In this document: in pieces, positions 5,405 to 31,731 of the stretch
Layout of the letters: each line of letters opens with the position of its first letter
How positions within the stretch are numbered: position 1 is the first letter of the stretch
Origin: Candidatus Nanobsidianus stetteri
GTDB lineage: Archaea; Nanobdellota; Nanobdellia; Nanobdellales; Nanobdellaceae
DNA: 32,000 bases
Assembly (NCBI GenBank): GCA_000387965.1
Contig: APJZ01000007.1
Span: 7,240 to 39,239 of the forward strand
Direction of reading: 5' to 3'
Made by a program: the position numbers and the translations under genes
The notes under the pieces: model-generated
What the model was told of the DNA's origin: nothing
Database searches by the model: none
Seen by the model: only the letters and a program-made list of their open reading frames with translations

Positions 5405-5504
5405 ACTTTTTAATATTTATAGTTTTACATAGATAATTTAGTTTTATTTTTTAGTAAATACATTACCAGTAATATTTATAAATATTTCTATGATATTTTT
5501 ATAT

Positions 5505-8767: not shown

Positions 8768-10125
8768 AATTTATCAATAAAATATCTTTTTATAGCCCAT
8801 ATAGATAAAACAAATAATGCTATATATATTAATTCGAAAGTTATTGCAATGGGAACAATTCCTGGATTTAAATTTGCAGCATCAACTGTTAATAGTATTC
8901 CATATATTGTCCATGGCTGCCTTCCAACTTCTGCAGCAATCCATCCAGTTTCCAAAGAAATTAAAGATAATATTGATAATAATATTAATCCATACAATAA
9001 TAATTTATTCATATAGAATGTATATTTTGGGTTTAAAGTAAATTTTTTATCTTTTTTATCTTCTTTTGAAATTATTAAAGATATCAATCCATATAATGAT
9101 ATAAAGAATATTAAAAATCCAAATATTGCCATTATATCAAAAGAATTGTGTGCTATGGTAATATCATTTGGCGAAGGTATATAAGATTCATTTACATATA
9201 TTCCAGGAACAATTGTATTTGGATTAAAACTCTCATATAATAATAAACTTTGCAAATTTGGAATTTGTATTGAATCAATTAATGTATAATTGTTTGTAAC
9301 AATTCCAAATAAATTTTCAGGTGCATTAGAAATATTTCCATTTAAATTAGCTTCCAATATTGAATACTTAACTGGTTGATATTTTGCCAATGTATCTATT
9401 GAATTTATTCCAAATATTCCTAATAATAATATTGATAGGAATAATATGGGAATTATTAATTTCAATGCTTTTCCATATATTTTTATATTTTCAATATCCT
9501 TTTCTTTCAATATTTTATAGGAAATAAATAATACAAACATTGATAAACCAAATTCTAGTGATGCTAAAATTCCATGAGATACTTCAATAAATTCTATTGG
9601 AGTAAAAAATATTGAATATGGATTTATATCAATATATTGACCATCCAAATACTCAATTCCTACAGGATAATTCATAAAAGAATTTAATGTTATTATTAAA
9701 AAACCAGACATGGTTGCAAATATTCCAATTATATACATAAATATCGGATGTAATACTGAATTATTATATTTTTTAAATGAATAGAAATATATACCCACAA
9801 ATAAAGATTCCATGAAGAATGCTAAAATTTCTATATATAATGATATAATTGCTGTATTACTCACTATTTGCATAAATTTTGGGAATAAAGTATACATTTC
9901 AACAGCAACAATTGTACCTGACAATGTTCCTATTGCAAATAAAACTAATATTAATGTAGATATCCTTTGAGCTAAATTTTTTATATTTTCATCTTTTTTT
10001 AATATTCCATATAATTCTAATGTTCCAATTGCAAAAGGCATTCCAATTGTAATTGATGCTATTATAATATGTATAGCAAGAGAAGATGCAAAAACTACCC
10101 TATCAATATCATATACAGGTAACAT
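8764..10125 (-). CDS. cydA: Cytochrome bd-type oxidase subunit I (CydA)
   Basis: 453 aa with the signature AAEVGRQPWTIYG, an N-terminal His at residue 19 (SSLAIHIIIAS) and ...FIEVSHGILASLEFG..., at the positions expected for heme ligands. The Q-loop is short. Confidence 0.88.
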   Translation of the reverse strand: MLPVYDIDRVVFASSLAIHIIIASITIGMPFAIGTLELYGILKKDENIKNLAQRISTLILVLFAIGTLSGTIVAVEMYTLFPKFMQIVSNTAIISLYIEILAFFMESLFVGIYFYSFKKYNNSVLHPIFMYIIGIFATMSGFLIITLNSFMNYPVGIEYLDGQYIDINPYSIFFTPIEFIEVSHGILASLEFGLSMFVLFISYKILKEKDIENIKIYGKALKLIIPILFLSILLLGIFGINSIDTLAKYQPVKYSILEANLNGNISNAPENLFGIVTNNYTLIDSIQIPNLQSLLLYESFNPNTIVPGIYVNESYIPSPNDITIAHNSFDIMAIFGFLIFFISLYGLISLIISKEDKKDKKFTLNPKYTFYMNKLLLYGLILLSILSLISLETGWIAAEVGRQPWTIYGILLTVDAANLNPGIVPIAITFELIYIALFVLSIWAIKRYFIDKL

Positions 10126-14031: not shown

Positions 14032-16654
14032 CTTTATTATTTTCTACATAAGGTTTTAAAATTTGGGCCATTAAATTTACGTCTAATTTTCCATTTATTG
14101 ATTTATGTACTGCAACTCCATCTCCTCCATAAACAAATTGTACAATTCTATTATATGCATCTCTAACAGTTAAATCATCATTTACATGAAGGTCATATAA
14201 ACTTAGTACTAATCTTCTATAGAAGTATCCAGATTGAGCAGTTCTTATTGCAGTATCCATTAAAGAGTCTCTACCGGGTAATGCGTGGAAGAACATTTCC
14301 CATGGTTGTAAACCATCTCTAAAAGAACTTATTACCCAACCATAATATTTTGGATGATATATGTTTCTCTCAAATATTGATAAATTCCTCCCTTTATAAC
14401 CAAAGTCTATAAATCTTCCTCTAAATGCCTGAAATCCTAAAGATCCAGCCATTCTAACGGCGTTTTGCCAATCACCTCTTGCACCAGTTATAGACATAAT
14501 ATATGTACCTGTATCTTTTTTCATATATTTTCTAAGAACATCTTGTATTTTTGTAACACTTTCAGATATAGCCTGCATAGATTTTAATTCATATGTTTCC
14601 TGTAAACTTCTACCAGCAATTCTTTCAAGAGTTCCTTCGGTATATTGTTTATATAAATCATTTACTGTTTTTTCTGTATTATCTATTATCTTTTTTATTT
14701 CCTCTTTTGCCTCTTCTGGCAAATCAAAATCAGAAATAGACATTGTAATTCCCAAATTATATTGATAATATATTCCCAATAAACTATATTTTTCTAATAG
14801 ATCATTTACATATTCTTTTCCATACAATTTATATAATATAACAAATAATCTTCCCTTCTCTGCTTTTATTAAACTTGAATCCAAATGCCCTCTAACAATC
14901 ATTCCATTTTCTATCTTTATTTTATCATTTTCAAAATTAAAGTCATCTGGTAAGAATACTGAGGCAATTTCTTTTCCAGTTAAATAATCTCTTCCTTCCT
15001 CTTTTGCTTTTTTAATAATATTAGACAACTTATCTAAATCTTTATCATTAGCGTTTGACATATATATTAACTGTGCAGCTTGATTAATAGGTATTTTTAC
15101 ATCATCTTGTGTTATTAAATACAATCCTGTTATCATTTCTTGTATCATACCAACAATAAAATCTCCATACCTTGGAGTAATATAATTATTTGATATTTCT
15201 GTTAAAAATTCTGCTTCTGCTCTTGCTTCTTCACTTCTTGGTAAGAATACATTCATTTCATCCCCATCAAAATCTGCATTATATGGTTTACATATTATTG
15301 GATTTATCCTAAAGGTATTTCCAGGAAGTATTTTAGCATAATGACCCATCATAGATAATCTATGTAAGGATGGATATCTTAATAATAATACAATATCTCC
15401 ATCCATTAAATGTCTTTCAACAATCCATCCTGGCGCAATCATTGAAGCAAGTGTTTCTTTATTTTCTTCTGTAATTATCCTTTTTCTTCCATCTGGAGAT
15501 ATTACATAATTTGCACCAGGATATTTTTCAGGTCCATTCAATATATATTCCTTCATTTTTTCAATATTCCATTCAGTAACCCTTTCAGGAACTGTCAATA
15601 TTTTTGCAACATATATTGGTATTCCAACCTCATTTGGTTTTATTTTTGTATCTGGAGTAATAACTGCCCTTGAACTATAATTTATTCTCTTTCCGAGCAA
15701 ATATCTCCTAATTATTCCTTCCTTTCCAGAAATTCTTTCAACCAATGATTTTAATGGTTTTCCAGATCTTTGTTGAGCTTTAGGTACATATGGTAAAGTA
15801 TTGTTAAAATATGTAAATATATGATATTGTAATAAATTATATATATCATCTACAATAACTTGTGGGGCTCCTGTTGTTATATCTTCTTTTAATCTTTGAT
15901 TTGTTCTTACAATATCAACTAATTTATGAGTTAAATCATCTTCCGCTCTTTCACCGGTTTCCAAAACTATTGAAGGTCTCATTGTTACTGGAGGTACTGG
16001 TAAAACTGTTAATATCATCCATTCTGGCCTAGAAAATGAAGGATCGAATCCAATTAATGGTAAATCTTCATTTGGTATTTTTTCAAATATTGCTCTAATT
16101 TCAACTGGATACATTCTTCTTTCATTTTCCTTATCCTTAACATAAAAGTAAAATGGTTTTCTAAATTCTACTTTTGGATTTTCATATCCACATACTGGAC
16201 ATTTTGATCTTTTTTTAGCTTTGGAATATACAAACTTAATTATAAATTTATATAATCTATTCCATCTTCTTGAATGTCTATACTTTTCTATCTTATTTAA
16301 TGCAAACTCTCTTTCTTCCTTTGTTAATTTCACATGACCACAATTATGACAAACCGCATTTACCAATTCTCTAACAATTGGTAAAAATTCTGGATGTAAT
16401 ACTGGCCTTGCCAGTTCAATATGACCAAAATGTCCCAAACATTTTCCCGCAGTTTTTCCACATGTTTCACATACATAACTTGGATCTACTACTCCCAATC
16501 TTAAATCCATTAATCCACCCCTTATTGGGGTTCCATCTTCATCATATAACTCTGATACAATTATTTTTGCTGCAGACATTTTTCTTATTGCATCGGGACT
16601 TAATAAAGAATATTGAATTTCAGAAATTCTTTTGAAAAATATATCCTTCATCAT
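13982..16654 (-). CDS. rpoA1: DNA-directed RNA polymerase subunit A'
   Basis: 890 aa with N-terminal zinc motifs (CETCGKTAGKCLGHFGHIEL; CHNCGH), the catalytic YNADFDGDEMNVFLP, and RYPSLHRLSMMGH. Confidence 0.96.
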   Translation of the reverse strand: MMKDIFFKRISEIQYSLLSPDAIRKMSAAKIIVSELYDEDGTPIRGGLMDLRLGVVDPSYVCETCGKTAGKCLGHFGHIELARPVLHPEFLPIVRELVNAVCHNCGHVKLTKEEREFALNKIEKYRHSRRWNRLYKFIIKFVYSKAKKRSKCPVCGYENPKVEFRKPFYFYVKDKENERRMYPVEIRAIFEKIPNEDLPLIGFDPSFSRPEWMILTVLPVPPVTMRPSIVLETGERAEDDLTHKLVDIVRTNQRLKEDITTGAPQVIVDDIYNLLQYHIFTYFNNTLPYVPKAQQRSGKPLKSLVERISGKEGIIRRYLLGKRINYSSRAVITPDTKIKPNEVGIPIYVAKILTVPERVTEWNIEKMKEYILNGPEKYPGANYVISPDGRKRIITEENKETLASMIAPGWIVERHLMDGDIVLLLRYPSLHRLSMMGHYAKILPGNTFRINPIICKPYNADFDGDEMNVFLPRSEEARAEAEFLTEISNNYITPRYGDFIVGMIQEMITGLYLITQDDVKIPINQAAQLIYMSNANDKDLDKLSNIIKKAKEEGRDYLTGKEIASVFLPDDFNFENDKIKIENGMIVRGHLDSSLIKAEKGRLFVILYKLYGKEYVNDLLEKYSLLGIYYQYNLGITMSISDFDLPEEAKEEIKKIIDNTEKTVNDLYKQYTEGTLERIAGRSLQETYELKSMQAISESVTKIQDVLRKYMKKDTGTYIMSITGARGDWQNAVRMAGSLGFQAFRGRFIDFGYKGRNLSIFERNIYHPKYYGWVISSFRDGLQPWEMFFHALPGRDSLMDTAIRTAQSGYFYRRLVLSLYDLHVNDDLTVRDAYNRIVQFVYGGDGVAVHKSINGKLDVNLMAQILKPYVENNKDGTTGKNKKGSRKNRR

Positions 16655-18456
16655 TAAAACTTATAATCCAACTTAAGTTTAGGCCAAATTCCGAGAGAAA
16701 TTAATTCATTTAATAATAAATTGAATGCATAAGAAACTTTAACTTTTGATATTTTTTCAGTTTCACCACAAATAGGACAATAAACTCTATTTCTTATATT
16801 ATCTTCAACAGCAAGAGAACCACATTTTTCACAAACATAAATAGTTGTATCATCAGAAGAATACATTTCTCTTAATAATATAGAAGCACCATGGGCAGCA
16901 AGGACCTCATGTTCCATTTCACTAAATTTCAAACCACCTTTCTTTGATTTACCCTCTGTTGGTTGCCTTGTTAATAATGTAACTGGACCTGTCGCTCTTG
17001 CCTGTAATTTATTCTTTGCCATATGCTTTAATCTTAAATAATAAATGCTTCCAATAAATATTTTAACCTTAAATTCATCCCCAGTTAGAGGATTATATAA
17101 TGTTTCTGTTCCATCTTCTCTAAATCCTAAAGATAACAATTCTTTCCTTAATTCTTCCTCACTTTCTCCATACCATGGTGTTCCGTCAACATATCTTCCA
17201 TTTAAACTTCCAACCTTTCCAGCAAGCAATTCTAATAATAAACCAACAGTTTCTCTTGAAGGAATTCCAGCAGGAGAGAATATTATATCAGGAACAAGAC
17301 CTGAAGATGACCATGGCATATCTGATGGATCAACAATCATCCCCAAAACACCTTTCTGTCCATGTCTTACAGAAAATTTATCTCCAAGTTCTGGGATTCT
17401 TAAGTCTCTTAATTTTATCCTAACAAGTAAATTTCCATCATTAGATTCTGTTATTACAACCCTATCTACCCATCCTTCCTCCCCACTACCAGTAGTTAAT
17501 GAAGAATCTTTCTTTCTTAAACCGGTTGCAATAGATTCAGAAGTTAAACCAATAAATCTGGGAGGTGATATCCTACCAACAAGGACTTCTTCTGGGTTTA
17601 CAAATGATTCGACAGCAACAATTCCGTCCTCTTCCAAATTTTTATATTTATCTTTTCCTCTATATAATTCCACGGAAGGATCTGGAATTGTAATTTCATC
17701 TTGTAATCCTCCAGAATATCTTAATCTTTCTATTTCATAAGATCTAAAATATACAGATCTAAATAAACCCCTATCTATTGAACCTTTATTCATGATAATT
17801 GCATCTTCAATATTATATCCTTCCTGTGTCATTACAGCAACAATTACATTTTGTCCTATTGCATAATCATCCTTAAATATATTAAAAGAAAATGTCCTGG
17901 TAATCGGGTATTGTGGATAATATAAGATTGATATATCAGTATCAAATCTATTATGGAAATTTAAAGAATATATAGCATGAGCCTGTCTCTGTGGTCTAAC
18001 ACCTCTATTTAATCTTGCAGATTGATTTCTATTTGAAAATGGAACCAAAGATGTAGCTATACTAAATATTACTAAAGAAGATAACTCTAAGTGAGTTGTA
18101 TCTTCCTTTATATCTTCAGGATATAATGCAACATTTAAATTTTCTTCTTCTGCAGGATCAACCCATTCAATTATACCTTCCTTTTCTAAATCTGACCATT
18201 TTATTTCTCCTCTCTTTAATTTTTCAATATGCTCTTTTGTTAATAATGGTTTTCCATCTTTTACAACAATTAAAGGTCTTAAAATCCTTCCCTTTCTAGT
18301 TAATATTTCTACAACATTTCTTGTTTCATCAAAATATATGTTTACAAAATATGGAATAATACCCTTTCTTCTTTTTTCCTTAAATTCTTCAATAAATTTA
18401 TTAGCATCATCTACATACCCAACAAAAATATTATCTATATAAACCTCATATGCCAT
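16654..18456 (-). CDS. rpoB1: DNA-directed RNA polymerase subunit B' (C-terminal half of B)
   Basis: 600 aa with ...GDKFSVRHGQKGV..., ...LRLKHMAKNKLQARATGPV..LTRQPTEGKSKKGGLKFSEMEHEVL..HGAS..., and a C-terminal zinc ribbon CEKCGS...CPICGE. Confidence 0.96.
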   Translation of the reverse strand: MAYEVYIDNIFVGYVDDANKFIEEFKEKRRKGIIPYFVNIYFDETRNVVEILTRKGRILRPLIVVKDGKPLLTKEHIEKLKRGEIKWSDLEKEGIIEWVDPAEEENLNVALYPEDIKEDTTHLELSSLVIFSIATSLVPFSNRNQSARLNRGVRPQRQAHAIYSLNFHNRFDTDISILYYPQYPITRTFSFNIFKDDYAIGQNVIVAVMTQEGYNIEDAIIMNKGSIDRGLFRSVYFRSYEIERLRYSGGLQDEITIPDPSVELYRGKDKYKNLEEDGIVAVESFVNPEEVLVGRISPPRFIGLTSESIATGLRKKDSSLTTGSGEEGWVDRVVITESNDGNLLVRIKLRDLRIPELGDKFSVRHGQKGVLGMIVDPSDMPWSSSGLVPDIIFSPAGIPSRETVGLLLELLAGKVGSLNGRYVDGTPWYGESEEELRKELLSLGFREDGTETLYNPLTGDEFKVKIFIGSIYYLRLKHMAKNKLQARATGPVTLLTRQPTEGKSKKGGLKFSEMEHEVLAAHGASILLREMYSSDDTTIYVCEKCGSLAVEDNIRNRVYCPICGETEKISKVKVSYAFNLLLNELISLGIWPKLKLDYKF

Positions 18457-21647: not shown

Positions 21648-22409
21648 ATGAAAAGGAGAGGTATAGATATGGCTGTCCAATTAATATTTGTAATAATAAT
21701 AATGCTAGTAGTAGCAGTTATTGTAATTAAGTTATTCCAGCAACAATCGTCAAAGATTAGTCAAATATCAAATACACAAATACAACAGGCAGTTTCTGAT
21801 TGTTCAAGCTATTGTTCAAGCCCATATACATTTTGTACAAAGTATGAAAATATAGGAAATGGGCTTGTAGAAGTAAGTCCTGGATATTATGTTTGTTCAA
21901 ATGCTGTTCCATGTAGTGTAGCATTACAATTATATGGAGGCTCTTCTAGTCAATGCCAATATGAAGGATTTACTATAACACCCCTTGATTGTATGTATCT
22001 AGAATGTCAAAATTATATTGATAATTTATATTATGATCCATTAGCAGCAACAAGTTATGTATTTGGAAATTATTCTTCTACTACATATTTTAATGCAACA
22101 ACTGGACAAGAAAATATACAAATTTCTTCTCCATCTCAAATATTAAATCCAGGTCCAGTACAATGTTCTGCACAATTACCAACATGGATTACAAATCAAG
22201 TATTTGGTGCATTATTAAAGATTATTAACTATTATGATACTGCAGATAATTGTAATTTGAATTTAACAGTTATTAATGGAGCATTAATGGTAACTGGAAA
22301 TTGTACAACATTGGGTATAAATAATAATGTCAATGGAATGCCATTATGTCAATTCTTATTGCAAGTACCATATTCCCAGTTAAATAATATACCAAGTACA
22401 ACAAGCTAA
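21648..22409 (+). CDS. Cys-rich extracellular protein with class-III (prepilin-like) signal candidate
   Basis: 253 aa. The N-terminus MKRRG/IDMAVQLIFVIIIMLVVAVIVI has basic residues, then Gly, then a long hydrophobic helix. There are 12 Cys, many N-x-S/T sequons, and no recognisable enzymatic domain. Confidence 0.7.
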   Translation: MKRRGIDMAVQLIFVIIIMLVVAVIVIKLFQQQSSKISQISNTQIQQAVSDCSSYCSSPYTFCTKYENIGNGLVEVSPGYYVCSNAVPCSVALQLYGGSSSQCQYEGFTITPLDCMYLECQNYIDNLYYDPLAATSYVFGNYSSTTYFNATTGQENIQISSPSQILNPGPVQCSAQLPTWITNQVFGALLKIINYYDTADNCNLNLTVINGALMVTGNCTTLGINNNVNGMPLCQFLLQVPYSQLNNIPSTTS

Positions 22410-22413
22410 TGTA

Positions 22414-24384
22414 ATGAGTTTTTTTGAATATTTTTATAATAACTTCAATTTAATAAAATTAAAAGCTCCTAGTCCAATATATAAAAAATATGCATTTCAT
22501 TTATGGTTAAATAGATTAAATACAAATCCGGATAATATATTTTCTTCTGTAATAACTCTTATAGTATTTTCTATAATCATATATTTCATTTTAAGTTTAG
22601 TAAGCTTTCAATTAGCTTTTTCTTTATTAATATCATTATTAATATTATCATTTTACTTTGCATATTATCCAATATTTTATACACAAGTTGTTAGAATACA
22701 AGTAACATCAGAAATTGTATGGATAATATTATATTTGTCATTATATCTAAAAAGGAATCCAAATTTAGAAAATGGAATAAAATATGTAGCATATTATATG
22801 AAAGGTTATATTGCAACAGACTTTAGATCATTATTATATAATTTGGAAACAAATAAATTTAATGATATTGAATCTGCATTGGAATATTATCAGAGAAGAT
22901 GGTTTTATTTGAGTCCGGATTTCGTATATGCAATGACCCATATTGTAAATATTAAATATAAGAATTCTATTGATGATATAAATAAATTATTAGATAGAAT
23001 TTTGGAATGGGTATTGAAAAAGTCTTTAGAAAAATCTCAAATATATGTAGATGCATTAAAGGAACCAGCAACAGTTATAGTATCTTTCCTAGTAATGATG
23101 CCAATAGTTAGTTTGATGATGTTACCAATAATATCTGTATTTTTATTAAATACTGTAAGTTTCTATTTCATAGCATTTTCATATATAATAATTTTACCAG
23201 TTATTACATTTTTAATAATTCAAAATTTCTTATCAAAAAATCCATTTGCATTTTCTGTTCCAGATTTATCTTTAGCAAGAGATCTACCAAAACCTGGAAA
23301 ATTTAAAATCGGAAATAAAGAAGTTCCAGCAATAATAATTTCAATAATATTAGGATCAATTGCAGTTTTAGGAATATATCATTTAATTTCCCTAGCTATA
23401 AAAATTACATTTATTCCACAGGGATTTTTAAATGATTATTTAAATATAGTTTATCAAGATAGAGCATTAATATATTCTGTTTTAACTTTAACATTACCTT
23501 TAGGATTGGGTTTGGGTATAGGATCTTATTATTATCTAACATCTTTCCAAAAGGTTAAAAAAATATATCAAATTGAAGAAATAGAAAATGAGTTCCCTAT
23601 TGTTGTATATGAATTCGCATCATTATTAGAAGATGGCTATCCATTTGAGATAGTAATTGAAAAAACATATTACAATTATAAAATAATAAAATCTTCAGGG
23701 GTTATGGAAAATTTTCTAAAAACAACATTATATAATTTAAGAAGAGGTTATGATTTAATTACTTCTGTATTCGATCCAAAAATTGGTTCATTAAACTTAT
23801 ATCCATCAAAATTAGTAAGAGAATCAATGCAATTGTTAGTTACTTCTGCATCAAAAGGTCCTGAAGTTTTATCAAAAATTGCATATAATGTATCAACAAA
23901 TTTAGAAAATGTGGATAATATAAGATATAATGTAAGGAAAATATTAAATGAAATAATTGGATTAATAGATATGACATCAAGAAATCTAGTACCATTAATT
24001 TCTGCAATGGTTACGGTTTTTAATAATGGAGTAGTTTCAATGCTTTTTGCACTTGCATATTTCTTTCAATTAATAGACCAATCTTTTGGTTTAGGTGGGG
24101 GATCAAACTTATTCAATTTCGTTGTAAATACATTTAATTTATATAATTTAATACCACCAACATTTTTTGAAGCAATAATCGGTATATTCTTTATAGAATA
24201 TGTAATAATAACCTCATATATGAGTGCTGGAATAAAATATGGATTTGATAGAACAATGACATCATATTATATAGGTAGAAATTTATTATTCGGAACAATA
24301 TTTTATGTAACATTTTCAATAATAGGAATATTAATAGTATATACAGTATTTGGCCCATATTTACCAACAAATATACAATTATGA
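22414..24384 (+). CDS. Polytopic membrane protein, FlaJ/TadC/PilC-like (two T2SSF-type repeats): candidate type IV pilus-like assembly platform
   Basis: 656 aa with two internal repeats of a soluble helical segment followed by TM clusters. Repeat 1 is ...VTSEIVWIILYLSLYLKRNPNLENGIKYVA...DIESALEYYQRRWFYLSPDFVYAMTHIV.... Repeat 2 is ...EFPIVVYEFASLLEDGYPFEIVIEK...LRRGYDLITSVF...YPSKLVRESMQLLVTSASKGPEVLSKIA.... Both resemble the FlaJ/T2SSF pattern (lp..l..la.l..aG....al......G.d...Al....PS..l.e.l..l....sGg.l...L). No Cys. Confidence 0.55.
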   Translation: MSFFEYFYNNFNLIKLKAPSPIYKKYAFHLWLNRLNTNPDNIFSSVITLIVFSIIIYFILSLVSFQLAFSLLISLLILSFYFAYYPIFYTQVVRIQVTSEIVWIILYLSLYLKRNPNLENGIKYVAYYMKGYIATDFRSLLYNLETNKFNDIESALEYYQRRWFYLSPDFVYAMTHIVNIKYKNSIDDINKLLDRILEWVLKKSLEKSQIYVDALKEPATVIVSFLVMMPIVSLMMLPIISVFLLNTVSFYFIAFSYIIILPVITFLIIQNFLSKNPFAFSVPDLSLARDLPKPGKFKIGNKEVPAIIISIILGSIAVLGIYHLISLAIKITFIPQGFLNDYLNIVYQDRALIYSVLTLTLPLGLGLGIGSYYYLTSFQKVKKIYQIEEIENEFPIVVYEFASLLEDGYPFEIVIEKTYYNYKIIKSSGVMENFLKTTLYNLRRGYDLITSVFDPKIGSLNLYPSKLVRESMQLLVTSASKGPEVLSKIAYNVSTNLENVDNIRYNVRKILNEIIGLIDMTSRNLVPLISAMVTVFNNGVVSMLFALAYFFQLIDQSFGLGGGSNLFNFVVNTFNLYNLIPPTFFEAIIGIFFIEYVIITSYMSAGIKYGFDRTMTSYYIGRNLLFGTIFYVTFSIIGILIVYTVFGPYLPTNIQL

Positions 24385-24665
24385 AATTACAACAATCAGT
24401 ATATTGGATTATAATAACTTTTATATTAATTATAGCTGCTGGTCTATTTTCTTTTTATTATATTTATAATGTAAAAAATAATTTAAGTGGAAATAATATA
24501 CAAACAATTAATTGCCAACAGTTGGAAAATTTATATAATAAAAGTTTTCAGGAAATAATTAATATTAAAGTATTTCTTAATGAAAATTGTACAATAAATG
24601 GAATAACAATACCTGCTGGCTATAGAATTATATATATTTATAACGGAAGTATTAATTATATATGA
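24381..24665 (+). CDS. Small pilin-like protein 1 (N-terminal hydrophobic helix plus small 2-Cys domain)
   Basis: 94 aa, MKLQQSVYWIIITFILIIAAGLFSFYYIY... The ATGA start/stop overlaps the upstream gene. The C-terminus is beta-strand-like (YRIIYIYNGSINYI). Confidence 0.65.
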   Translation: MKLQQSVYWIIITFILIIAAGLFSFYYIYNVKNNLSGNNIQTINCQQLENLYNKSFQEIINIKVFLNENCTINGITIPAGYRIIYIYNGSINYI

Positions 24666-25141
24666 AAAATGATATAGCAATAGATACTGTATTTATTATC
24701 ATAATAGCAATAATATCTGTTGCAGTTATATTAGATATTATTTACACAAAATTCTTTTACAATTCTCAAGCATATTATTGTCAATCATTAATATCACAAG
24801 GTGGTTTTTCTCCATCATGTGAAAAATATTATCCTTCAGCAATAAATATTATATATACGAATGAAAGTAAGGATACAATTTATTCAGATATAACAGGATT
24901 GATATTAAATTGCTACAATAATAATGTAAATACAAATAAATTATTTAACATATGTTATGATATTTATATAGATGAAAATATTACTCTACATTCATCAACA
25001 TTAATTCAATACATACAAACTTATACTTCATTTAATCCAAATAATGTTATATTTCATTTAAATAATAGTGATGGAAATATTTATCCATACAATAGTATAT
25101 TTATAATATACAACAATAGTTATATTGTAATATGGCAATAA
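24662..25141 (+). CDS. Small pilin-like protein 2 (N-terminal helix plus 4-Cys domain)
   Basis: 159 aa, MKNDIA/IDTVFIIIIAIISVAVIL..., with ATGA overlap. It has 4 Cys, including a ..NCY..(13)..ICY.. pattern shared with the next gene. Confidence 0.65.
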   Translation: MKNDIAIDTVFIIIIAIISVAVILDIIYTKFFYNSQAYYCQSLISQGGFSPSCEKYYPSAINIIYTNESKDTIYSDITGLILNCYNNNVNTNKLFNICYDIYIDENITLHSSTLIQYIQTYTSFNPNNVIFHLNNSDGNIYPYNSIFIIYNNSYIVIWQ

Positions 25142-25545
25142 AGTCTCAAGAACTTCCAATTAATTATACCTTCTTAATAATTATAGGAATAATTGTTGTA
25201 TCAGTAATTACTGGAATAATATTTTTATTAAAAGGAAATATAACTTCTTATATTAGTAATACAATACCTAAATATAATAATACGCAAACTGTAGTAGAAA
25301 CAAATGTAAGTTCAGTACAAGATGTTGCAATGGATGTTGTAGCATGTTATTATAAAAAAGCGCAGGGTCTTTGTTATTTAATTAATTATCAAGGATCTCC
25401 ATTTACATGTCAAGATTTAATAAACAATGTAAGTAGTATAGATCCAAACGTAGTAATGCAAAATTGCAATTATAATATAAATCCTGGAGAATATATATTA
25501 GTATATTCGGCAGGAAATTATGTTTATATTAATGTTCAAGGATAA
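25132..25545 (+). CDS. Small pilin-like protein 3 (N-terminal helix plus 4-Cys domain)
   Basis: 137 aa, MAIKSQELPINYTFLIIIGIIVVSVITGIIFLL... It overlaps the upstream gene by 10 nt and has 4 Cys (..VACYYKKAQGLCYLINY..). Confidence 0.65.
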   Translation: MAIKSQELPINYTFLIIIGIIVVSVITGIIFLLKGNITSYISNTIPKYNNTQTVVETNVSSVQDVAMDVVACYYKKAQGLCYLINYQGSPFTCQDLINNVSSIDPNVVMQNCNYNINPGEYILVYSAGNYVYINVQG

Positions 25546-25547
25546 AA

Positions 25548-25988
25548 ATGGAAAAGTGGTTTTGGATAATTGTAACAATTATTGCATTTGGTTTATCTTT
25601 ATATTTATATTTTAAATTTTCCAGTATAAATAATCAGACTCAATTATTATATCAGGATATATCTTCATGCCAAAATTTATATACAACCATTGAAAAAGTA
25701 TGTTATTCAAACAATGGAACGGAATTGTATATTAATATTGAAATAAATAAGTATTTAAATTATATATATGCTAATAATAATTTATTAAGTTGCTATATAT
25801 ATAATGAATATTATAATTATACAATACCATGTAATGTAATAATAAATACAGCAAATAATATGATTCAATATTATACTTCCGGACTATTTTATGAATTATC
25901 ATATGGATATCCAAATGAAAAAATTCCATTACTTGTTGAAAAAACTTCTCCAACAGAAGTAACAATTTATATAGAAAATCCAAGTTAA
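25548..25988 (+). CDS. Small pilin-like protein 4 (N-terminal helix plus 4-Cys domain)
   Basis: 146 aa, MEKWFWIIVTIIAFGLSLYLYF... It starts 2 nt after the upstream stop and has 4 Cys. Confidence 0.65.
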   Translation: MEKWFWIIVTIIAFGLSLYLYFKFSSINNQTQLLYQDISSCQNLYTTIEKVCYSNNGTELYINIEINKYLNYIYANNNLLSCYIYNEYYNYTIPCNVIINTANNMIQYYTSGLFYELSYGYPNEKIPLLVEKTSPTEVTIYIENPS

Positions 25989-26024
25989 AACATTTTTAAA
26001 ATTTTTAAATATTATTAGATCATA

Positions 26025-27524
26025 ATGAAAAGATATCAATTAAATTTACTTTCAGTAGCAATAATATTGGTAATTATATCTTTAGCTTTTATAATATATT
26101 ATCAATATTCTATGAATGTTAAAGAACAACAAGAAAATTTAATATTTGAAAATTTTATTAATAACTTACAAAATTTAGAAAATACAATAAATAGTATTCA
26201 AGGTACATATTATATAAAAGTCAATATACCAAATGGAATTATATTATATGCAAATGGCCCAAAATTAATAATACAATATAATAATAATAATTATACAATT
26301 GATTTTCAAAACAAGACAGTAGTTTTATATAATAATAATCAAAATGTGAACTTTTTATATCCAAATAATCATATATATATTGTTAGTACAAATAATACTA
26401 TTTTTGTTACAACAAATCTTCAAAATTCAATTACAATATTAAATGAATATCTATCAAATGGAAATCTTGTATATATAAATCCTGAAAACATAAATAACAA
26501 TAATGAAGGAAATAATCAAGGAAATAACAATAATAATATTAACCAAAATGTTCAATGCTTATTTCAATATAATGGACAAGCAAACTTTTTCTGGGGTGAT
26601 GTAAATGGAAATAATTATTTACCTCCAATAGGAGATCAGGGAGAATGTGGAGATTGTTGGGCTTTTGCATCTGCAAATGGAATTGCTTCAATATATATGA
26701 TAAGAAATAATCAACCAAATGATGGATTACAATTATCCCCAGCATATTTAGCAATAGAGTGCAATAATGGATATCCAAACACTCCAAATTATTGTAATTC
26801 CAATGAAGGTTGTACTGGTGGTGTTGTATATCCTGCTCTATTATTTACATCTCAATATGGAATTCCACCTGATCAAGGATGGAACTATTATAATTCTACT
26901 TTAGCTAACTGTTTAGAAAATAATAATCAAAATTATCCTGGTGATGTATGTAATTACAATTATAATGGACCTAACTCTCCATTATATTATTCGCAAGGTG
27001 TTATATTTCTTACACAAAATGGACCTTTAACAGATCAACAAGTAATTCAAGATTTATTATGTTATGGACCATTAGTAGCTGCCGGATTTCTAGGAGGTAG
27101 TGGTGGATCAAATCCAAATATAAATCCTCAACAACCAATACTTAATACAGGACATGCTATGTTATTAGTTGGTTATACCACTAGCAATACTATATATTCC
27201 CAACTATGTCAAGAAGTATATGAAACCCCTAATTGTTGGATATTTGAGAATCAATGGGGAGATAATTCAGCTTGTATAGTTCTTACTACAAGCGGAGTAC
27301 CAGTACCTGGACCAAACAACCCTAATCAGTGTGGTGAATTATATCAAAATTATCAGGATTGTAATAATTATCTACAATTGGTTCTTAAAGTACCCGGAGT
27401 ATCATGTGGAGGTGTGTATTGGATGCAAGATGGATATTTGCTTGTACCATTCGATCAATCCTCATATGGCCAAACATTTCCATACTATATAGTTGCAATT
27501 CAAAATGTCACTCTCGCACAATAA
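26025..27524 (+). CDS. Papain-family (C1) cysteine peptidase with N-terminal hydrophobic helix, pilin-like module and Asn-rich linker
   Basis: 499 aa. Catalytic motifs are GDQGECGDCWAFASANG (Gln plus Cys211, codon at 26655-26657), GCTGGVVYPALLFTSQYGIP, NTGHAMLLVGY (His377, 27153-27155) and CWIFENQWGDN (Asn409). N-terminus MKRYQLNLLSVAIILVIISLAFII. Linker NINNNNEGNNQGNNNNNINQN is at 26487-26549. There are 15 Cys. Confidence 0.85.
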   Translation: MKRYQLNLLSVAIILVIISLAFIIYYQYSMNVKEQQENLIFENFINNLQNLENTINSIQGTYYIKVNIPNGIILYANGPKLIIQYNNNNYTIDFQNKTVVLYNNNQNVNFLYPNNHIYIVSTNNTIFVTTNLQNSITILNEYLSNGNLVYINPENINNNNEGNNQGNNNNNINQNVQCLFQYNGQANFFWGDVNGNNYLPPIGDQGECGDCWAFASANGIASIYMIRNNQPNDGLQLSPAYLAIECNNGYPNTPNYCNSNEGCTGGVVYPALLFTSQYGIPPDQGWNYYNSTLANCLENNNQNYPGDVCNYNYNGPNSPLYYSQGVIFLTQNGPLTDQQVIQDLLCYGPLVAAGFLGGSGGSNPNINPQQPILNTGHAMLLVGYTTSNTIYSQLCQEVYETPNCWIFENQWGDNSACIVLTTSGVPVPGPNNPNQCGELYQNYQDCNNYLQLVLKVPGVSCGGVYWMQDGYLLVPFDQSSYGQTFPYYIVAIQNVTLAQ

Positions 27525-28332
27525 ATATTTAATAGCATTATCTATTCTCTTTTTCATAATTTTATCTTACAATATATATTCTATGAGGAATCCATTTGCA
27601 GTTTATTGCGAATATGGTGGAGGAACATATTATATAAATAGTACAGGATCTTATTGTATTGTAAATGGTACATATTTTAATGCTCTACAATATTATGAGA
27701 ATAATGTGCCTCCCCAATATTCTTTCTGTGCCCATTATGGATTAATATATGTAAATAACAGTTATTGTGAATATCCAAATGGAACATTAGTTAGTCCATA
27801 TACATTAATCCCTCCATCAACATATCAAGACCTAATTTTACCTACACCACCTATATTATGTAATAGTTTATTAAATTGTTCAAATACTCCTTGGTATTAT
27901 CAACCATGTTCAAATCAAATCTATCCATGCTTTAATCCTCCATATATACCCCAATCTTACTTAACAGGTAATACTTCTTATCAAACTCTTTTATCTACAT
28001 ATCAACAAGAATATCAATGTGGGTATTGTCCAGAAAACTTATCATTTGAAGGAGATTGGTTTAGATGTCCATATAATTATTCATTAAATCAGTTATATCA
28101 AGAATTTCTAAAACAATGTCCACCACCAAATATTGTTTATATATCATGTACAGGAGTATTTGAATGCGTAAATCAGACTGAAATAAATTTAACAAATAAT
28201 ACACAGCAATTAATTTATCCACAACCAAATATAAGTAATAAAAGTAATAATGTTAATTTAATTTTACCAATAGCAATAGTAATAGTAATAATTATAATAG
28301 GCCTAGTTATTCTTTTATATTATCTAAAATGA
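27505..28332 (+). CDS. Cys-rich protein with DUF333-like ('putative hemolysin') module, N-terminal helix and C-terminal TM anchor
   Basis: The ORF track starts at a TTG (27493); the ATG at 27505 (MSLSHNKYLIALSILFFIILSY...) is preferred. NPFAVYCEYGGGTYYINSTGSYCIVNGTYFNALQYY matches the DUF333 pattern NP[AS]..YC...GG.........G..C....G.....W/Y..Y. A second, weaker repeat is FCAHYGLIYVNNSYCEYPNGT. There are 14 Cys. The C-terminus is NVNLILPIAIVIVIIIIGLVILLYYLK*. Confidence 0.6.
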   Translation: MSLSHNKYLIALSILFFIILSYNIYSMRNPFAVYCEYGGGTYYINSTGSYCIVNGTYFNALQYYENNVPPQYSFCAHYGLIYVNNSYCEYPNGTLVSPYTLIPPSTYQDLILPTPPILCNSLLNCSNTPWYYQPCSNQIYPCFNPPYIPQSYLTGNTSYQTLLSTYQQEYQCGYCPENLSFEGDWFRCPYNYSLNQLYQEFLKQCPPPNIVYISCTGVFECVNQTEINLTNNTQQLIYPQPNISNKSNNVNLILPIAIVIVIIIIGLVILLYYLK

Positions 28333-29942
28333 AAAATCAGATAAATACATTAGCATTTGTTATTATTATTTCAATAATAATTTTATTAATTGTTTTAGTT
28401 TATCTTTTATCAACTAGTTCTAGTTCTAAAATAACACAAACATATAATGTAGAAAACCAATATACATTAACAATTCAAAATAGCGTTGATTTATTACCTT
28501 ATATTTATGATAATAAAGTTAATTTATCCTATGCATTTTTATTATCATATTTTTCATCTTCTGGAAATGATACATATTGTATAAATCAAAATACATGTAC
28601 AAACATATCGGAAGATTTAATAAATTACTTTGACAGTATATATGGAAATAGATGGAATTTAACTATATATTTTATCCCACCAGTAACTGGATGGGTTGTT
28701 CAGATGTTTATAATAGGTGGTAATATTGGAAATTGGGATCCGTGTTCAATGAATCCTCCCCCAGATCCCAATGGTACGCAATGGTATGAATGGAATTACA
28801 CATATTTCTTTGTAGATAATTATACAGAAAATATTAATCTACCGAATGTATACAATCCAATTACTAATACGCCAATAAGTCAAACCTTATATGGAGCAGG
28901 ATGGGTAAATGCAACAGCACCTTTTCATCAGTCTAATTCAATAAGTTCTTGGGGATTACCAACATTATATAATAACCTGGATCAATCTCAGGCAATACAA
29001 ACAGGTTTCTGTACACCATTAACAAAAATATTTCCAAATTATAATTTTACAGAAGCTTCTGTATATTGCCCTCAAGGTAAATGGAATCTATTTCCAAATT
29101 TTGGAACTTCGCCAACTTCTTCATTACCACAATTTTTCTCTGGTTGGATAGGAATTGGAACTCCAGTAGCAGGCTCTCAATATTTAACAGATGTTGGTTA
29201 CTATTATTATGGACCTCCAACATATAAAACAGCTACTGATATAAATAGATTAGCAGAATTTATAATCCCACAACAATATTTAGATAAAATATGCCAAGAA
29301 GAATTTGGTACTCAGCAATGCGGGAGTCAAGAATTGATTGTTGGGTCATTTTATAGAGGTGTAGTAAATATACCACCAAATTGTCAGCAAGTATTTATAG
29401 ATTATCCCTGGCATGAAGTAATAAGATTATATATTTCATTTTTGAATAAGAGCGGAGAACCAGATTATGTATTTTTAGCGGCAGATCCTCTATGTGAATA
29501 TAATTTAAATGGAAAATTAATAGATTGTCCAACTGGTGTATTTGATAATATACAAAATGTAAATGGAATTATTGTTGGAAAAGACTGTCCTCTAGTTTAT
29601 TTAATGGATCAAAATTCATATGCCGAAGGATTGTATAGATTTAATATTACTAAATGGGTAATAGATGATAGAGATTCAAATACAAATCAATTTATAATTT
29701 CTGCAGTATATTATGATCCTCATAATGGAGGAAATGGAGTTGCAATGGCAAGAGTATATTGTATTACAAATACTGGAAATAAAGAAGAATTAAACGCATA
29801 TATTTATCAAGGTAATGAAGAAAGTATAAATCTAGGATATCCAATACCTCCGAATACAAATATATATGTTTATTATATATATTTACCAGTAGATGTATCA
29901 TTCTTGGGCGGATATTTAGTTGCTAAATTAACAGTATGGTAA
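28329..29942 (+). CDS. Large extracellular protein, N-terminally anchored, no recognisable domain
   Basis: 537 aa, MKNQINTLAFVIIISIIILLIVLVYLLSTSSSS..., with ATGA overlap. It has 12 Cys, many sequons, and is rich in W/Y/N/P/G. Confidence 0.7.
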   Translation: MKNQINTLAFVIIISIIILLIVLVYLLSTSSSSKITQTYNVENQYTLTIQNSVDLLPYIYDNKVNLSYAFLLSYFSSSGNDTYCINQNTCTNISEDLINYFDSIYGNRWNLTIYFIPPVTGWVVQMFIIGGNIGNWDPCSMNPPPDPNGTQWYEWNYTYFFVDNYTENINLPNVYNPITNTPISQTLYGAGWVNATAPFHQSNSISSWGLPTLYNNLDQSQAIQTGFCTPLTKIFPNYNFTEASVYCPQGKWNLFPNFGTSPTSSLPQFFSGWIGIGTPVAGSQYLTDVGYYYYGPPTYKTATDINRLAEFIIPQQYLDKICQEEFGTQQCGSQELIVGSFYRGVVNIPPNCQQVFIDYPWHEVIRLYISFLNKSGEPDYVFLAADPLCEYNLNGKLIDCPTGVFDNIQNVNGIIVGKDCPLVYLMDQNSYAEGLYRFNITKWVIDDRDSNTNQFIISAVYYDPHNGGNGVAMARVYCITNTGNKEELNAYIYQGNEESINLGYPIPPNTNIYVYYIYLPVDVSFLGGYLVAKLTVW

Positions 29943-31144
29943 AAAAAGAAGATAAGATTTTATTTCTTATATATTTAATTTTGTTTTTACTTTTTATTTA
30001 TATTAGCAACTTTAATATTAATATAATTATCTTTGGTACAATATATTTATTCTTATTGTCCTTTATATTAAAAAATTCGAAGAATACATCTTTAATATAC
30101 AAATTAACATTTTTATATATACCAATTGGGATTTTTGGAATTTATACCAATCTACCTTTACCATTTCCATTTCCGTCAATATTTACTTATGTAGTAAATT
30201 ATTGGATATTTTATTTTATAGCATTTTCTTTAGGATATTATCTATTTGAAAACAACTTTTATATTTCAAAAAAATCTCTAATATTCTATATAATTTCTAT
30301 AATTTTATATATAATATTATTTTTCTTTGAATTAATATATAATTCTGTAACTACAGATTTAGATGTATCAGTGGGAAATATAATAATTTTATTTCTTATC
30401 TTTGTCTCTCTATATCTATATATTTTCAAAATAATATATTCATCTCTATTTATAATATTTGCCATATTCTTATTTCTAGTTGCATATTTTAATAGCAATG
30501 AAATATTAATAGTAAAAACAAAAATATATGAAAAGATATCAAAAATATATAAATACAAAAAGTATATATTTCTGTTAATATTTCTTATAATAATATTACA
30601 GATTATCATTGCTATAAACAAATTATTATTGTATAATGGTTTAATTATAGAAAGTTCAACTGGAAAATATATTATCTACGAATATGAATCTCTAATATTT
30701 TTATCTATATACGAATTTATAATTTACTTTTTAGTTTATAGAAATTTAAGATATAATAATTATACAAGTTATTTCTTACTTTTTACTATGGTTTTAATAA
30801 TATTTTTTGGAGAACTATATTTATCAAATGTAGATTTTACTTCTGCAGCTTTACATACTAGATATCTAATAGCTATGCTATTTTTCTTTATGGGTATACA
30901 CCATAAAATATATAAAAATAGTAAAAGAGTAATTACAAAAGCTCTAGGTATTTCTATTGGTATTTTAATCTTGTTACAAAATATAACTGGAGAATTCCTT
31001 GAATCAGTATTGTTTGGAGGACCAAGTAGTATACATTTAGTATCTATACCAAATATATTAATAGCACTCGGAATTATACATGGATTAGTAACGCCAATTC
31101 TTATATTAACATTTATATATTTACATATTAAATTAAAAATATGA
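29936..31144 (+). CDS. Hypothetical polytopic membrane protein (about 10 or more hydrophobic segments), Cys-free
   Basis: 402 aa, overlapping the upstream gene by 7 nt (ATGGTAA). Extremely I/L/F/Y-rich. No Cys and no GxGD motif. Two pairs of His spaced 15 residues apart lie in the C-terminal third. Confidence 0.7.
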   Translation: MVKKEDKILFLIYLILFLLFIYISNFNINIIIFGTIYLFLLSFILKNSKNTSLIYKLTFLYIPIGIFGIYTNLPLPFPFPSIFTYVVNYWIFYFIAFSLGYYLFENNFYISKKSLIFYIISIILYIILFFFELIYNSVTTDLDVSVGNIIILFLIFVSLYLYIFKIIYSSLFIIFAIFLFLVAYFNSNEILIVKTKIYEKISKIYKYKKYIFLLIFLIIILQIIIAINKLLLYNGLIIESSTGKYIIYEYESLIFLSIYEFIIYFLVYRNLRYNNYTSYFLLFTMVLIIFFGELYLSNVDFTSAALHTRYLIAMLFFFMGIHHKIYKNSKRVITKALGISIGILILLQNITGEFLESVLFGGPSSIHLVSIPNILIALGIIHGLVTPILILTFIYLHIKLKI

Positions 31145-31731
31145 GAAATCAAACAGAAATTATTTATGTAGTTTTATTTCTAACAATTGCTATATTAATA
31201 ATCCTTCTATCTTTCTATGCATTGACATATAATTATAATCAAAATATTGTTTTTAATAGATTCACTTCTTTATCTACACTATCAAACTATTTTTTGGGAT
31301 ATTTACAAACATTATTAACACAGGAAAGTTATGCAGAATCATATTTAGCTGGAACAAATGGATGGGGAAAAGAAAATTGGGCTTCTTATCCTTACGGATG
31401 TATATTACCTCAATCATGTCAAAATGCAATTCAATATTATAATAACTTGCTAACTTCTGGATATCAAACTTTATTAACTTTTGGAGAACAATATTTAACT
31501 GCATATCAATATTATTATCCTTATAATGTATCTTTCAATTTTTCAAATAATTATCAGGCAGGAATCTTCGGAGATTGTAATAATATAATTTCCGGAGAAT
31601 ATAATTATAATTTTCCTGTCTATGTTCAAGGATTATATATAAATATTACTGGACCTTCTTCAGGTTCAATAATTCCATATGCAAGTACATCAAATATAAC
31701 AAACAATCCCGCATTCTATTTATTTAACTAA
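31141..31731 (+). CDS. N-terminally anchored extracellular protein, hypothetical
   Basis: 196 aa, MRNQTEIIYVVLFLTIAILIILLSFYALTY..., with ATGA overlap. Y/N/Q-rich with 3 Cys. Confidence 0.65.
   Translation: MRNQTEIIYVVLFLTIAILIILLSFYALTYNYNQNIVFNRFTSLSTLSNYFLGYLQTLLTQESYAESYLAGTNGWGKENWASYPYGCILPQSCQNAIQYYNNLLTSGYQTLLTFGEQYLTAYQYYYPYNVSFNFSNNYQAGIFGDCNNIISGEYNYNFPVYVQGLYINITGPSSGSIIPYASTSNITNNPAFYLFN

Follow-up and report, generated by a model that had tools for sequence, protein, structure and literature searches.

A papain-family peptidase joined to a pilin-like module in a conserved operon of the nanoarchaeon Candidatus Nanobsidianus stetteri

Results

The peptidase gene and its enzyme domain

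The DNA analysed here, which we call the window, is a stretch of 32,000 nucleotides from Candidatus Nanobsidianus stetteri (GenBank assembly GCA_000387965.1, contig APJZ01000007.1, positions 7,240 to 39,239 of the forward strand). Our subject is an open reading frame (ORF) on its plus strand, at 26025 to 27524, which starts with ATG and encodes a papain-family (C1) cysteine peptidase of 499 amino acids (aa) with a pilin-like N-terminal module, and the operon in which it lies. The window is archaeal, with a G+C content of 24-25%, and also holds split RpoA and RpoB genes, RpoH, FtsZ, ribosomal proteins and cytochrome bd. The product is 100% identical to P0001, the NCBI entry ‘Peptidase C1A subfamily [Candidatus Nanobsidianus stetteri]’. 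In Supplementary Data 1 of Wurch et al. 2016, the Nst1 orthologue is Nst1_643 and that of Nanopusillus acidilobi is Nps_00495, entered as ‘Peptidase C1A subfamily’ with one transmembrane (TM) domain, without a signal peptide, and in arCOG03611. The C1 family assignment is therefore already public. Because the ORF has ~40 full-length homologues (54-82% identity) and its orthologues show pairwise ratios of nonsynonymous to synonymous divergence (dN/dS, estimated by Nei-Gojobori) of 0.25-0.5, it is not a chance reading frame.

Pfam family PF00112 (Peptidase_C1) matches aa 197-414 with an E value of 1.8e-17 and 64.6 bits (cut-off 20.7), covering profile positions 12-193 of 220, and all homologues of the peptidase carry it. 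The oxyanion-hole Gln (Q205) and the catalytic Cys (C211) lie in GDQGECGDCWAFAS, the catalytic His (H377) in GHAMLLVGY, and the orienting Asn and Trp (N409, W411) in ENQWG, so that the full C1 set named in the original prediction, which was made from the letters alone, is present. In a family alignment of 24 sequences, C211, H377 and N409 never vary, while conservation of Q205 and W411 is at least 90%; the catalytic residues are kept across ~40 orthologues, and in lineages down to 27-45% identity Cys, His and Asn are still invariant and Trp nearly so. When the family profile is aligned with human dipeptidyl peptidase 1 (DPP1, cathepsin C), the motifs fall on QASCGSCYSF, NHAVLLVGY and YWIVKNSWG, with C211 and H377 on C234 and H381. 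This alignment confirms that Cys, His and Asn were not misassigned relative to true C1 positions. It was used in place of a single-sequence alignment, which had set the last motif off by six residues, and Asn409 is taken as the catalytic Asn because the profile alignment places it there and CWIFENQWG matches YWIVKNSWG. Characterised enzymes are only ~25% identical to the peptidase.

A Foldseek search with the AlphaFold2 model of the full protein returned cathepsin B, cruzain and procathepsin B (E ~3e-5, probability 1.0 for cathepsin B and cruzain). The predicted local distance difference test (pLDDT) of that model is below 50 over aa 142-324, which is the linker and the first lobe of the enzyme (L-domain, aa 178-324). 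An insertion of ~45 aa after NQWG is specific to the family and is predicted with high confidence, and the catalytic Asn is preceded by a Cys-bridged signature, C-x3-Y-G-x3-CW. The enzyme domain has 15 Cys and the N-terminal module none, which suggests an extracellular location for the enzyme, as does the single N-terminal TM segment without a Sec signal predicted for the N. acidilobi orthologue.

From these residues the peptidase is apparently catalytically competent. It could instead be a pseudo-enzyme or adhesin in which the C1 fold serves to bind and not to catalyse. Two orthologues, P0038 and P0039, which are of one Nanopusillus-type lineage (L003:4742-6388, and L004), have the oxyanion-hole Gln replaced by Lys (AETKFCGACWAV) and keep Cys, His and Asn; this lineage may have altered activity, and the substitution would suit a binding protein, as would the lack of detection in a proteome discussed below. 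The catalytic triad is nevertheless invariant, with Trp411 nearly so, down to the most distant lineages noted above, and we regard a pseudo-enzyme as very improbable indeed.

An I29 propeptide and a Sec signal peptide were both looked for as explanations of the N-terminal part, and neither was found, in agreement with the original prediction. Even with the limit relaxed to E<=10, Pfam matches neither I29 nor any other prodomain family within aa 1-177, the linker ends only ~10 residues before the start of the mature domain, and the h-region is longer than a cleavable Sec signal allows. The I29 propeptide is typical of C1A zymogens and not of all C1 peptidases.

The N-terminal module and the linker

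The N-terminal module (N-module, aa 1-153) has a basic start, MKRY, an invariant Gln5 and a hydrophobic stretch over aa 6-28. Its N-terminus (MKRY-QLNLLSVAIILVIISLAFIIYY) is conserved, and the mean Kyte-Doolittle hydropathy of its 19-mer is 2.93. The module is rich in Asn (21%), Ile (15%), Leu (10%) and Tyr (9%), and modelled alone by AlphaFold2 it reaches a pLDDT of 81.6, with a continuous helix over aa 3-57 followed by 8-9 strands (62-129). A charged N-terminus with a hydrophobic stretch, followed in the AlphaFold2 model by a ~50-aa helix and a beta head, is the general layout of a type IV pilin, and as modelled it would not be that of a simple anchor.

Similarity to other proteins of the locus is found at the N-terminus. 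By hhalign the first 30 aa of the N-module resemble the N-terminus of the 537-aa protein encoded downstream (86%), which in turn resembles that of the 196-aa protein (80%). In 5 of 11 locus proteins a [KR]-x(0-2)-Q motif leads straight into a strongly hydrophobic 19-mer; of the 23 other window genes one has the motif, and there it comes without a hydrophobic helix. The common operon with a T2SSF platform gene and the common [KR]-x-Q motif and helix support the view that the N-module belongs with four small proteins encoded just upstream, a kinship that had been proposed on other grounds, namely strand-like endings, which turn out to be only a short and non-significant motif. BLAST without composition correction also matched the N-module to the small proteins (E ~1e-6 to 1e-7); these matches, which we take to be driven by composition and TM segments, were discounted because the similarity seen by hhalign is limited to the first ~30 residues. 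A homologue search with the N-module alone returned only four fragments.

The Asn-rich linker lies exactly where it had been placed, with 61% Asn, and its pLDDT is below 50. It varies in length and composition among orthologues, being poly-N/G/Q in some, poly-Gly in P0059, ~60 aa and Gly/Ser-rich in P0038 and P0039, and Pro/Ser in Nanoarchaeota archaeon YN1.

A change of carrier in YN1

The N-module is indeed a separate unit, as had been supposed, for in YN1 its orthologue is a separate 141-aa gene (L007:15785-16210, 44-46% identity) that ends where the linker would start. The C1 domain is fused in YN1 to the orthologue of another protein of the operon, the 146-aa protein, in P0207 (L007:13201-14940, 579 aa): aa 1-146 are 63% identical to the window protein, and are followed by an extra segment of ~100 aa, the Pro/Ser linker and the C1 domain. 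As read from these genes, the C1 domain is joined to two different small proteins of one operon. The occurrence of one enzyme domain on two carriers ties the N-module to the small proteins, and a role as prodomain is ruled out by the free-standing YN1 gene and the replacement by another carrier. In YN1, two paralogues of the DUF333-like protein described below (283 and 172 aa; L007:14937-15788 and 16223-16741) flank the stand-alone N-module gene.

The operon

The genes from 21648 to at least 31731 are tightly packed, with overlaps of 4 to 20 nt (Table 1), and the operon has a sole sizeable intergenic gap, of 36 nt (25989-26024), directly before the peptidase gene. This gap holds a TATA-like TTTTTAAAA ~27 nt before the peptidase ATG; it may be an internal promoter giving a leaderless mRNA, and such a match arises easily by chance at 24% G+C. 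The gene order of the operon is shared by eight Nanopusillus species (including N. acidilobi 7A) and YN1.

Table 1. Features of the peptidase operon in the window
Feature	Position	Strand	Details
253-aa Cys-rich protein, first operon gene	21648..22409	+	Canonical class III signal MKRRG/IDMAVQLIFVIII (begins IDMAV)
656-aa polytopic membrane protein, T2SSF/FlaJ/TadC-type platform by homology	22414..24384	+	Nst1_638, arCOG01814
94-aa small pilin-like protein (MKLQQSVYWIIITFILII...)	24381..24665	+	K-x-Q motif and hydrophobic helix; 4-nt overlaps on both sides; syntenic in all loci
159-aa small pilin-like protein (MKNDIA/IDTVFIIIIAII)	24662..25141	+	Family hidden Markov model (HMM) match to L071 161-aa protein; syntenic
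137-aa small pilin-like protein (MAIKSQELPINYTFLIIIGI)	25132..25545	+	Family HMM matches in L069 and L071
146-aa small membrane-anchored protein (MEKWFWIIVTIIAF...)	25548..25988	+	Orthologue is the C1 carrier in YN1
N-module of peptidase, aa 1-153	26025..26483	+	AlphaFold2, YN1 stand-alone orthologue, hhalign
Asn-rich low-complexity linker NINNNNEGNNQGNNNNNINQN, aa 155-175	26487..26549	+	61% Asn
Papain-family (C1) catalytic domain, aa 178-499	26556..27524	+	Pfam, PDB sequence matches, Foldseek, conservation
Catalytic codon Q205	26637-26639	+	
Catalytic codon C211	26655-26657	+	
Catalytic codon H377	27153-27155	+	
Catalytic codon N409	27249-27251	+	
Divergent DUF333-domain protein (by homology)	27505..28332	+	275 aa from ATG 27505; 279 aa from TTG 27493
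537-aa protein, pilin-like N-terminus (MKNQINTLAFVIIISII), large Cys-rich ectodomain	28329..29942	+	Syntenic; no Pfam family
402-aa polytopic membrane protein	29936..31144	+	Syntenic
196-aa pilin-like protein (MRNQTEIIYVVLFL)	31141..31731	+	Last operon gene

Two genes at the head of the operon link the N-module gene, within the same operon, to the assembly of type IV filaments. The 253-aa protein has an N-terminus conserved in 10 orthologues and the strongest N-terminal hydrophobic 19-mer of the window genes after the 537-aa protein; it has no Pfam family, and we consider it a candidate major pilin. For the 656-aa protein the only Pfam signal is a weak one to PF00482 (E 1.2), which spans the whole profile. 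Its distant homologues P0051, P0053 and P0054 (E 1e-52 to 1e-59) carry PF00482, homologues in DPANN contigs directly follow T2SSE ATPase genes (L005:6283-12046 and L006:7756-12028), and arCOG01814 is common to it and to an annotated T2SS protein F; by these homologies it is probably a T2SSF/FlaJ/TadC-type platform protein. As side observations on the same two contigs, the T2SSE ATPase of L005 is 1249 aa long, with an intein containing a LAGLIDADG domain, and both have large genes for M23 or M15+SLT cell-wall hydrolases less than 10 kb from the pilus genes.

The four small proteins between the platform and peptidase genes (94, 159, 137 and 146 aa) each have an N-terminal hydrophobic helix. At the other end, Nps_00480, the N. 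acidilobi counterpart of the 402-aa protein, has 10 TM domains. The 196-aa protein matches only residues 1-196 of its orthologues, which are 409-458 aa long, and this suggests that the gene ends at an assembly junction or a rearrangement and is not a true short gene. The window sequence after 31731 is unrelated to the C-terminal halves of these orthologues. The Nst1 locus-tag numbering in Wurch et al. jumps at the peptidase locus.

Further upstream in the window, among housekeeping genes, lie an AbiEii-like nucleotidyltransferase (5490-6107, borderline in Pfam), a tyrosine recombinase of the phage-integrase family (7040-7879) and cytochrome bd subunits I and II (7871-10125). Cytochrome bd is named in the literature as a fast-evolving nanoarchaeal gene.

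The DUF333 neighbour

Directly downstream of the peptidase gene, its conserved partner gene encodes the 275/279-aa protein (Nps_00490 in N. acidilobi), which begins with a hydrophobic segment and has a TM anchor at its C-terminus. PF03891 (DUF333) is found below threshold in three of five homologues (four orthologues and one YN1 paralogue), always over the first half of the profile, and on the window protein directly it scores 15.6 bits, under the threshold of 25. By hhalign the downstream family matches the DUF333 domains of C1 outgroup proteins at 69.6%. Its HMM also finds a 324-aa protein (L071:3033-4004) over the full length with E 1.4e-19, and this is a bona fide DUF333 protein (PF03891, 73 bits, E 2e-20) with the same C-terminal anchor. 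We therefore read the 275/279-aa protein, on sequence comparison, as a probable divergent homologue of DUF333-containing proteins.

The association reaches further than the nanoarchaea. DUF333 precedes the C1 domain on the same chain in 80 (e.g. P0064, P0068 and P0151) of the 145 nearest C1 representatives from outside the nanoarchaea. As in L071, the gene after the C1 gene encodes DUF333 in L069 (11613-12539) and in the Altiarchaeales contig L070 (10193-10978), which makes three further archaeal lineages with this arrangement. DUF333 therefore travels with this C1 clade, either fused in cis or in the next gene. The association with the papain family appears to be undescribed so far; a sequence search gave no solved DUF333 structure, and no relevant DUF333 literature was found. 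Its role is possibly that of an inhibitor, chaperone, regulator or targeting domain.

Relatives in other lineages

A profile search covering 1.84 billion representatives gave only five clusters below 1e-30, including the nanoarchaeal P0003, P0040 and P0059, where P0003 is assigned through its ~79% identity to the window protein; after these five, scores fall from 182 to 94 bits. The C-x3-Y-G-x3-CW-I-x2-N-S-W-G signature occurs in 15 of the 150 proteins listed, nanoarchaeal members included. This signature sub-clade has members with canonical class III signals (P0069, MRKG/IAILTE; P0138, MKA/AVTLSEY), and also includes P0092/P0214, whose first 80 residues align with the window N-module from the N-terminus (E ~4e-4, in a database of ~150 sequences).

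The contig of P0069 (L069, 5566-17253, archaeal, 33% G+C) has at least 10 consecutive genes with textbook [KR]G class III signals, and the run includes an 883-aa VWA protein, a 524-aa C1 peptidase and a 688-aa Peptidase_C25 of the gingipain family (E 1.4e-11). Several enzymes and adhesins are thus placed on pilin-like N-termini within one locus. The contig of P0214 (L071) repeats the order of the window, with four small genes, C1 and the DUF333 gene. The HMM of the 159-aa family finds the 161-aa protein of L071 (canonical MKG/LVFSEY, E 5e-6), that of the 146-aa family the 149-aa protein of L071 (E 1e-8), and that of the 137-aa family a 144-aa protein of L069 (MKSKG/SMSLEM, E 2e-5) and the 133-aa protein of L071 (E 3e-3). 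Another C1 protein of the sub-clade, P0063 (768 aa), has a sub-threshold T4SS_pilin match (PF18895, E 7e-5) in the TM region upstream of the enzyme, and may be a further peptidase joined to a pilin-type segment.

The view that C1 peptidases are uncommon in archaea was overstated, as arCOG03611 exists and relatives occur in Methanosarcinales, Altiarchaeales and Aenigmatarchaeota. A horizontal origin from bacteria or eukaryotes was also considered; no clear donor emerged, with bacteria and archaea intermingled among the nearest outgroups (22-28% identity).

Divergence within the locus

Compared with the same genomes, the platform protein is 93-96% identical, the small proteins 76-97%, the N-module 65-86% and the C1 domain 54-80%. 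The dN of the C1 domain (0.10-0.35) is 5 to 18 times higher than that of the platform (0.02-0.03), at a dN/dS of 0.25-0.39. No other part of the locus has diverged as far as the C1 domain, which is nevertheless under purifying selection; positive selection on the peptidase was considered and rejected, as dN/dS stays at 0.25-0.5 and not above 1. Synonymous divergence of the C1 domain is raised as well, e.g. against L003, where dS is 1.4 for 26556-27524 against 0.33 for the platform gene (22414-24384), which hints at exchange or recombination of old alleles and not simple positive selection. The locus is in this respect a mosaic in divergence, which suggests recombination. Fast divergence under purifying selection fits an interface protein.

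These rates bear on the possibility that the enzyme is a maturation or turnover protease, which trims the pilin-like or Cys-rich proteins of its own locus or the S-layer of the symbiont. Tight operon linkage with at least eight secreted or membrane proteins would be expected of such a protease, Cwp84 of Clostridioides difficile is among the structural matches (Foldseek rank 15, E 1.2e-2), and a missing A24 prepilin peptidase, to which we return, leaves processing unexplained. Makarova et al. have suggested pilin processing or degradation by surface peptidases at archaeal type IV pilus loci. However, the enzyme diverges much faster than its putative substrates next door, the long flexible linker suggests a reach past the own membrane, and a prepilin leader is removed on the cytoplasmic face, whereas the disulfide-rich domain should lie outside. 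We consider maturation an improbable function.

Discussion

With confidence that is evenly balanced, we propose that the gene encodes an active extracellular C1 endopeptidase on a pilin-derived carrier, displayed by the filament-like system of its own operon, tethered by the linker and acting beyond its own envelope, with the DUF333 protein as partner. In the carrier, a short basic N-terminus would be followed by a hydrophobic helix, continuous with a helix predicted to span ~55 residues, and then by a small beta domain; the disulfide-rich enzyme domain would be attached through a flexible low-complexity linker of variable length. By analogy with the Sulfolobus bindosome, type IV-filament-like machinery would insert or display the pilin-like carrier, and the linker would give the protease reach to proteins outside the envelope of the cell. 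Since the organism is an obligate ectosymbiont, the substrates would most plausibly be S-layer or surface proteins of the host at the contact site. The operon would be translationally coupled, bringing together the class III-signal protein, the platform, the four small proteins, the peptidase, the DUF333 protein and the further pilin-like and membrane proteins, and the adjacent DUF333 protein would be a partner, possibly a chaperone, regulator or inhibitor.

The strongest evidence for a pilin-like carrier is comparative, and comes mainly from other genomes: next to the operon and the predicted layout, it is YN1 and the relatives with class III signals that point in this direction. Our reading of the N-module is that it is a derived, degenerate descendant of class III-signal proteins. 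Several observations weigh against the proposal as a whole. None of the locus proteins is in the N. acidilobi co-culture proteome table, which limits claims on abundance; membrane glycoproteins often escape proteomics. The window has no assembly ATPase, and the 146-aa protein is without a K-x-Q motif; a candidate ATPase partner of the platform protein would be Nps_01175 of N. acidilobi, which is a stand-alone ATPase of the VirB11 type. The active-site geometry in the AlphaFold2 model would be of low confidence, since the pLDDT of the L-domain is low. As for the N-module itself, Foldseek finds no pilin (best E 0.23), sequence profiles find no pilin in the PDB, so that resemblance to known pilins is lacking in structure and sequence, and hhalign finds no detectable homology (<2%) among its globular part and those of the four small proteins. 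The cleavage site is non-canonical as well. Archaeal signal peptidase III (SPase III) substrates require G or A at -1 (PMC3387779), and here the site reads R-Y-Q, with R at -2 and the invariant Q at +1, while at -1 the orthologues have Y, N, D, G, L or S. Lastly, Makarova et al. (PMC4858521) detected an A24 prepilin peptidase in neither of two nanoarchaea, and the gene table of N. acidilobi contains none, although the host of this species has one.

Much of this would suit a simpler explanation, in which the enzyme is an ordinary signal-anchored surface protease for feeding on environmental or host-released proteins, and the pilus-like neighbours are coincidental or mark a common export route. 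The organism cannot make its own amino acids, which is the premise of this explanation, and papain-type enzymes are generally active under acidic conditions. The culture medium of N. acidilobi has a pH of 3.6 and contains peptone (PMC4935971). The non-canonical cleavage motif and the lack of a known prepilin peptidase, the N-module without a pilin fold match, the YN1 146-aa carrier, which looks like a plain anchor, and the lack of an ATPase gene nearby all favour a feeding protease too. On the other hand, strict conservation of the operon with the T2SSF platform and the class III-signal proteins speaks against it, as do homologues with textbook class III signals inside pilin clusters, a predicted N-terminal helix of 55 residues where an anchor would have 20, and a fast-evolving enzyme domain, which is unexpected for a general digestive protease. 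We think it rather unlikely that the enzyme serves feeding in this way, while giving the idea real weight.

Among known proteins, C1A peptidases (MEROPS C1A; cathepsin L and B, dipeptidyl peptidase 1, papain) have the same Gln/Cys/His/Asn set with QGxCGxCWAF, HA..LVGY and NSWG-like motifs. Unlike typical members, the peptidase here has a pilin-like module and a low-complexity linker in place of an I29 propeptide or Sec signal, and it has the insertion after NQWG and the Cys-bridged C-x3-Y-G-x3-CW before Asn. Cwp84, a weak Foldseek match, is likewise a surface-anchored C1A protease that acts on an S-layer protein, and matures the S-layer precursor of C. difficile; it differs in being bacterial and in having a propeptide, a lectin-like domain and cell-wall-binding repeats, and no pilin-like module. 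The nearest outgroup by profile search is formed by the DUF333-C1 peptidases of bacteria and archaea mentioned above, some of which are called ‘putative hemolysin’. These have DUF333 on the same chain as the peptidase, after a Sec signal and frequently together with dockerin, cohesin or beta-helix domains, whereas in the window the DUF333-like domain is on a protein of its own with a C-terminal anchor, and it is a pilin-like module that carries the peptidase.

The closest parallels in arrangement come from archaeal surface systems. In the Sulfolobus bindosome (PMC3387779), a functional globular protein sits on a pilin-like N-terminus, and genes for small pilin-like proteins and pilus-type assembly components accompany its own. 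The system predicted here differs in having a protease as cargo where the bindosome has a solute-binding protein, in its non-canonical cleavage motif, in lacking an adjacent ATPase gene, and in belonging to an organism from which no PibD-type peptidase is known. Type IV pilus loci of methanogens have transglutaminase-like surface peptidases (arCOG02164, arCOG09555 and arCOG03450; Makarova, Koonin and Albers 2016), which are also cysteine peptidases of the papain-like superfamily linked to pili. The present enzyme is of the C1 and not the transglutaminase-like family and comes from other lineages, and the methanogen peptidases have not been reported as fused to a pilin-like module. Nanoarchaeal type IV pili have been proposed for host attachment (PMC6142677).

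The C1 annotation, functional proteins on class III signals (bindosome) and transglutaminase-like peptidases at archaeal pilus loci are thus already known. Our literature search found no paper on this peptidase, on its pilin-like module and genomic setting, or on the link between DUF333 and C1. As far as these searches reach, what is new is a C1 peptidase fused to a pilin-type carrier and conserved in a defined operon of Nanopusillaceae and relatives, together with the change of carrier in YN1, the DUF333 partnership, and degenerate signals in a lineage reported to be without a prepilin peptidase.

A bolder version of our proposal, which we think has only a small chance of being right, is that a short type IV filament or bindosome-like assembly carries a protease head that cuts surface proteins of Sulfolobales or Acidilobus hosts, with DUF333 as inhibitor or immunity factor. 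If so, cutting of the host S-layer would open a contact site through which the nanoarchaeon feeds, and the membrane-anchored DUF333 protein would shield the symbiont’s own envelope. DUF333 would then be a partner domain with a regulatory role, so far overlooked, for a large clade of prokaryotic C1 peptidases, and assembly that dispenses with a classical prepilin peptidase would account for the degenerate K-x-Q N-termini.

On the question of how nanoarchaea and other DPANN ectosymbionts get through the envelope of their hosts or reshape it, published work, to our knowledge, points to type IV pilus genes and fast-evolving surface proteins and names no enzymes. The locus described here gives a concrete candidate, a protease that would be physically coupled to a pilin-type carrier, that is found family-wide, and whose fastest divergence is in the enzyme domain. 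Beyond the nanoarchaea, peptidases on class III-signal modules (C1, and C25 in L069) recur in several archaeal lineages, and the systematic fusion or adjacency of DUF333 to this C1 clade would give a first functional handle on a widespread domain. For the ectosymbionts themselves, Nps_00495 of Nanopusillus acidilobi is a candidate that can be tested in culture.

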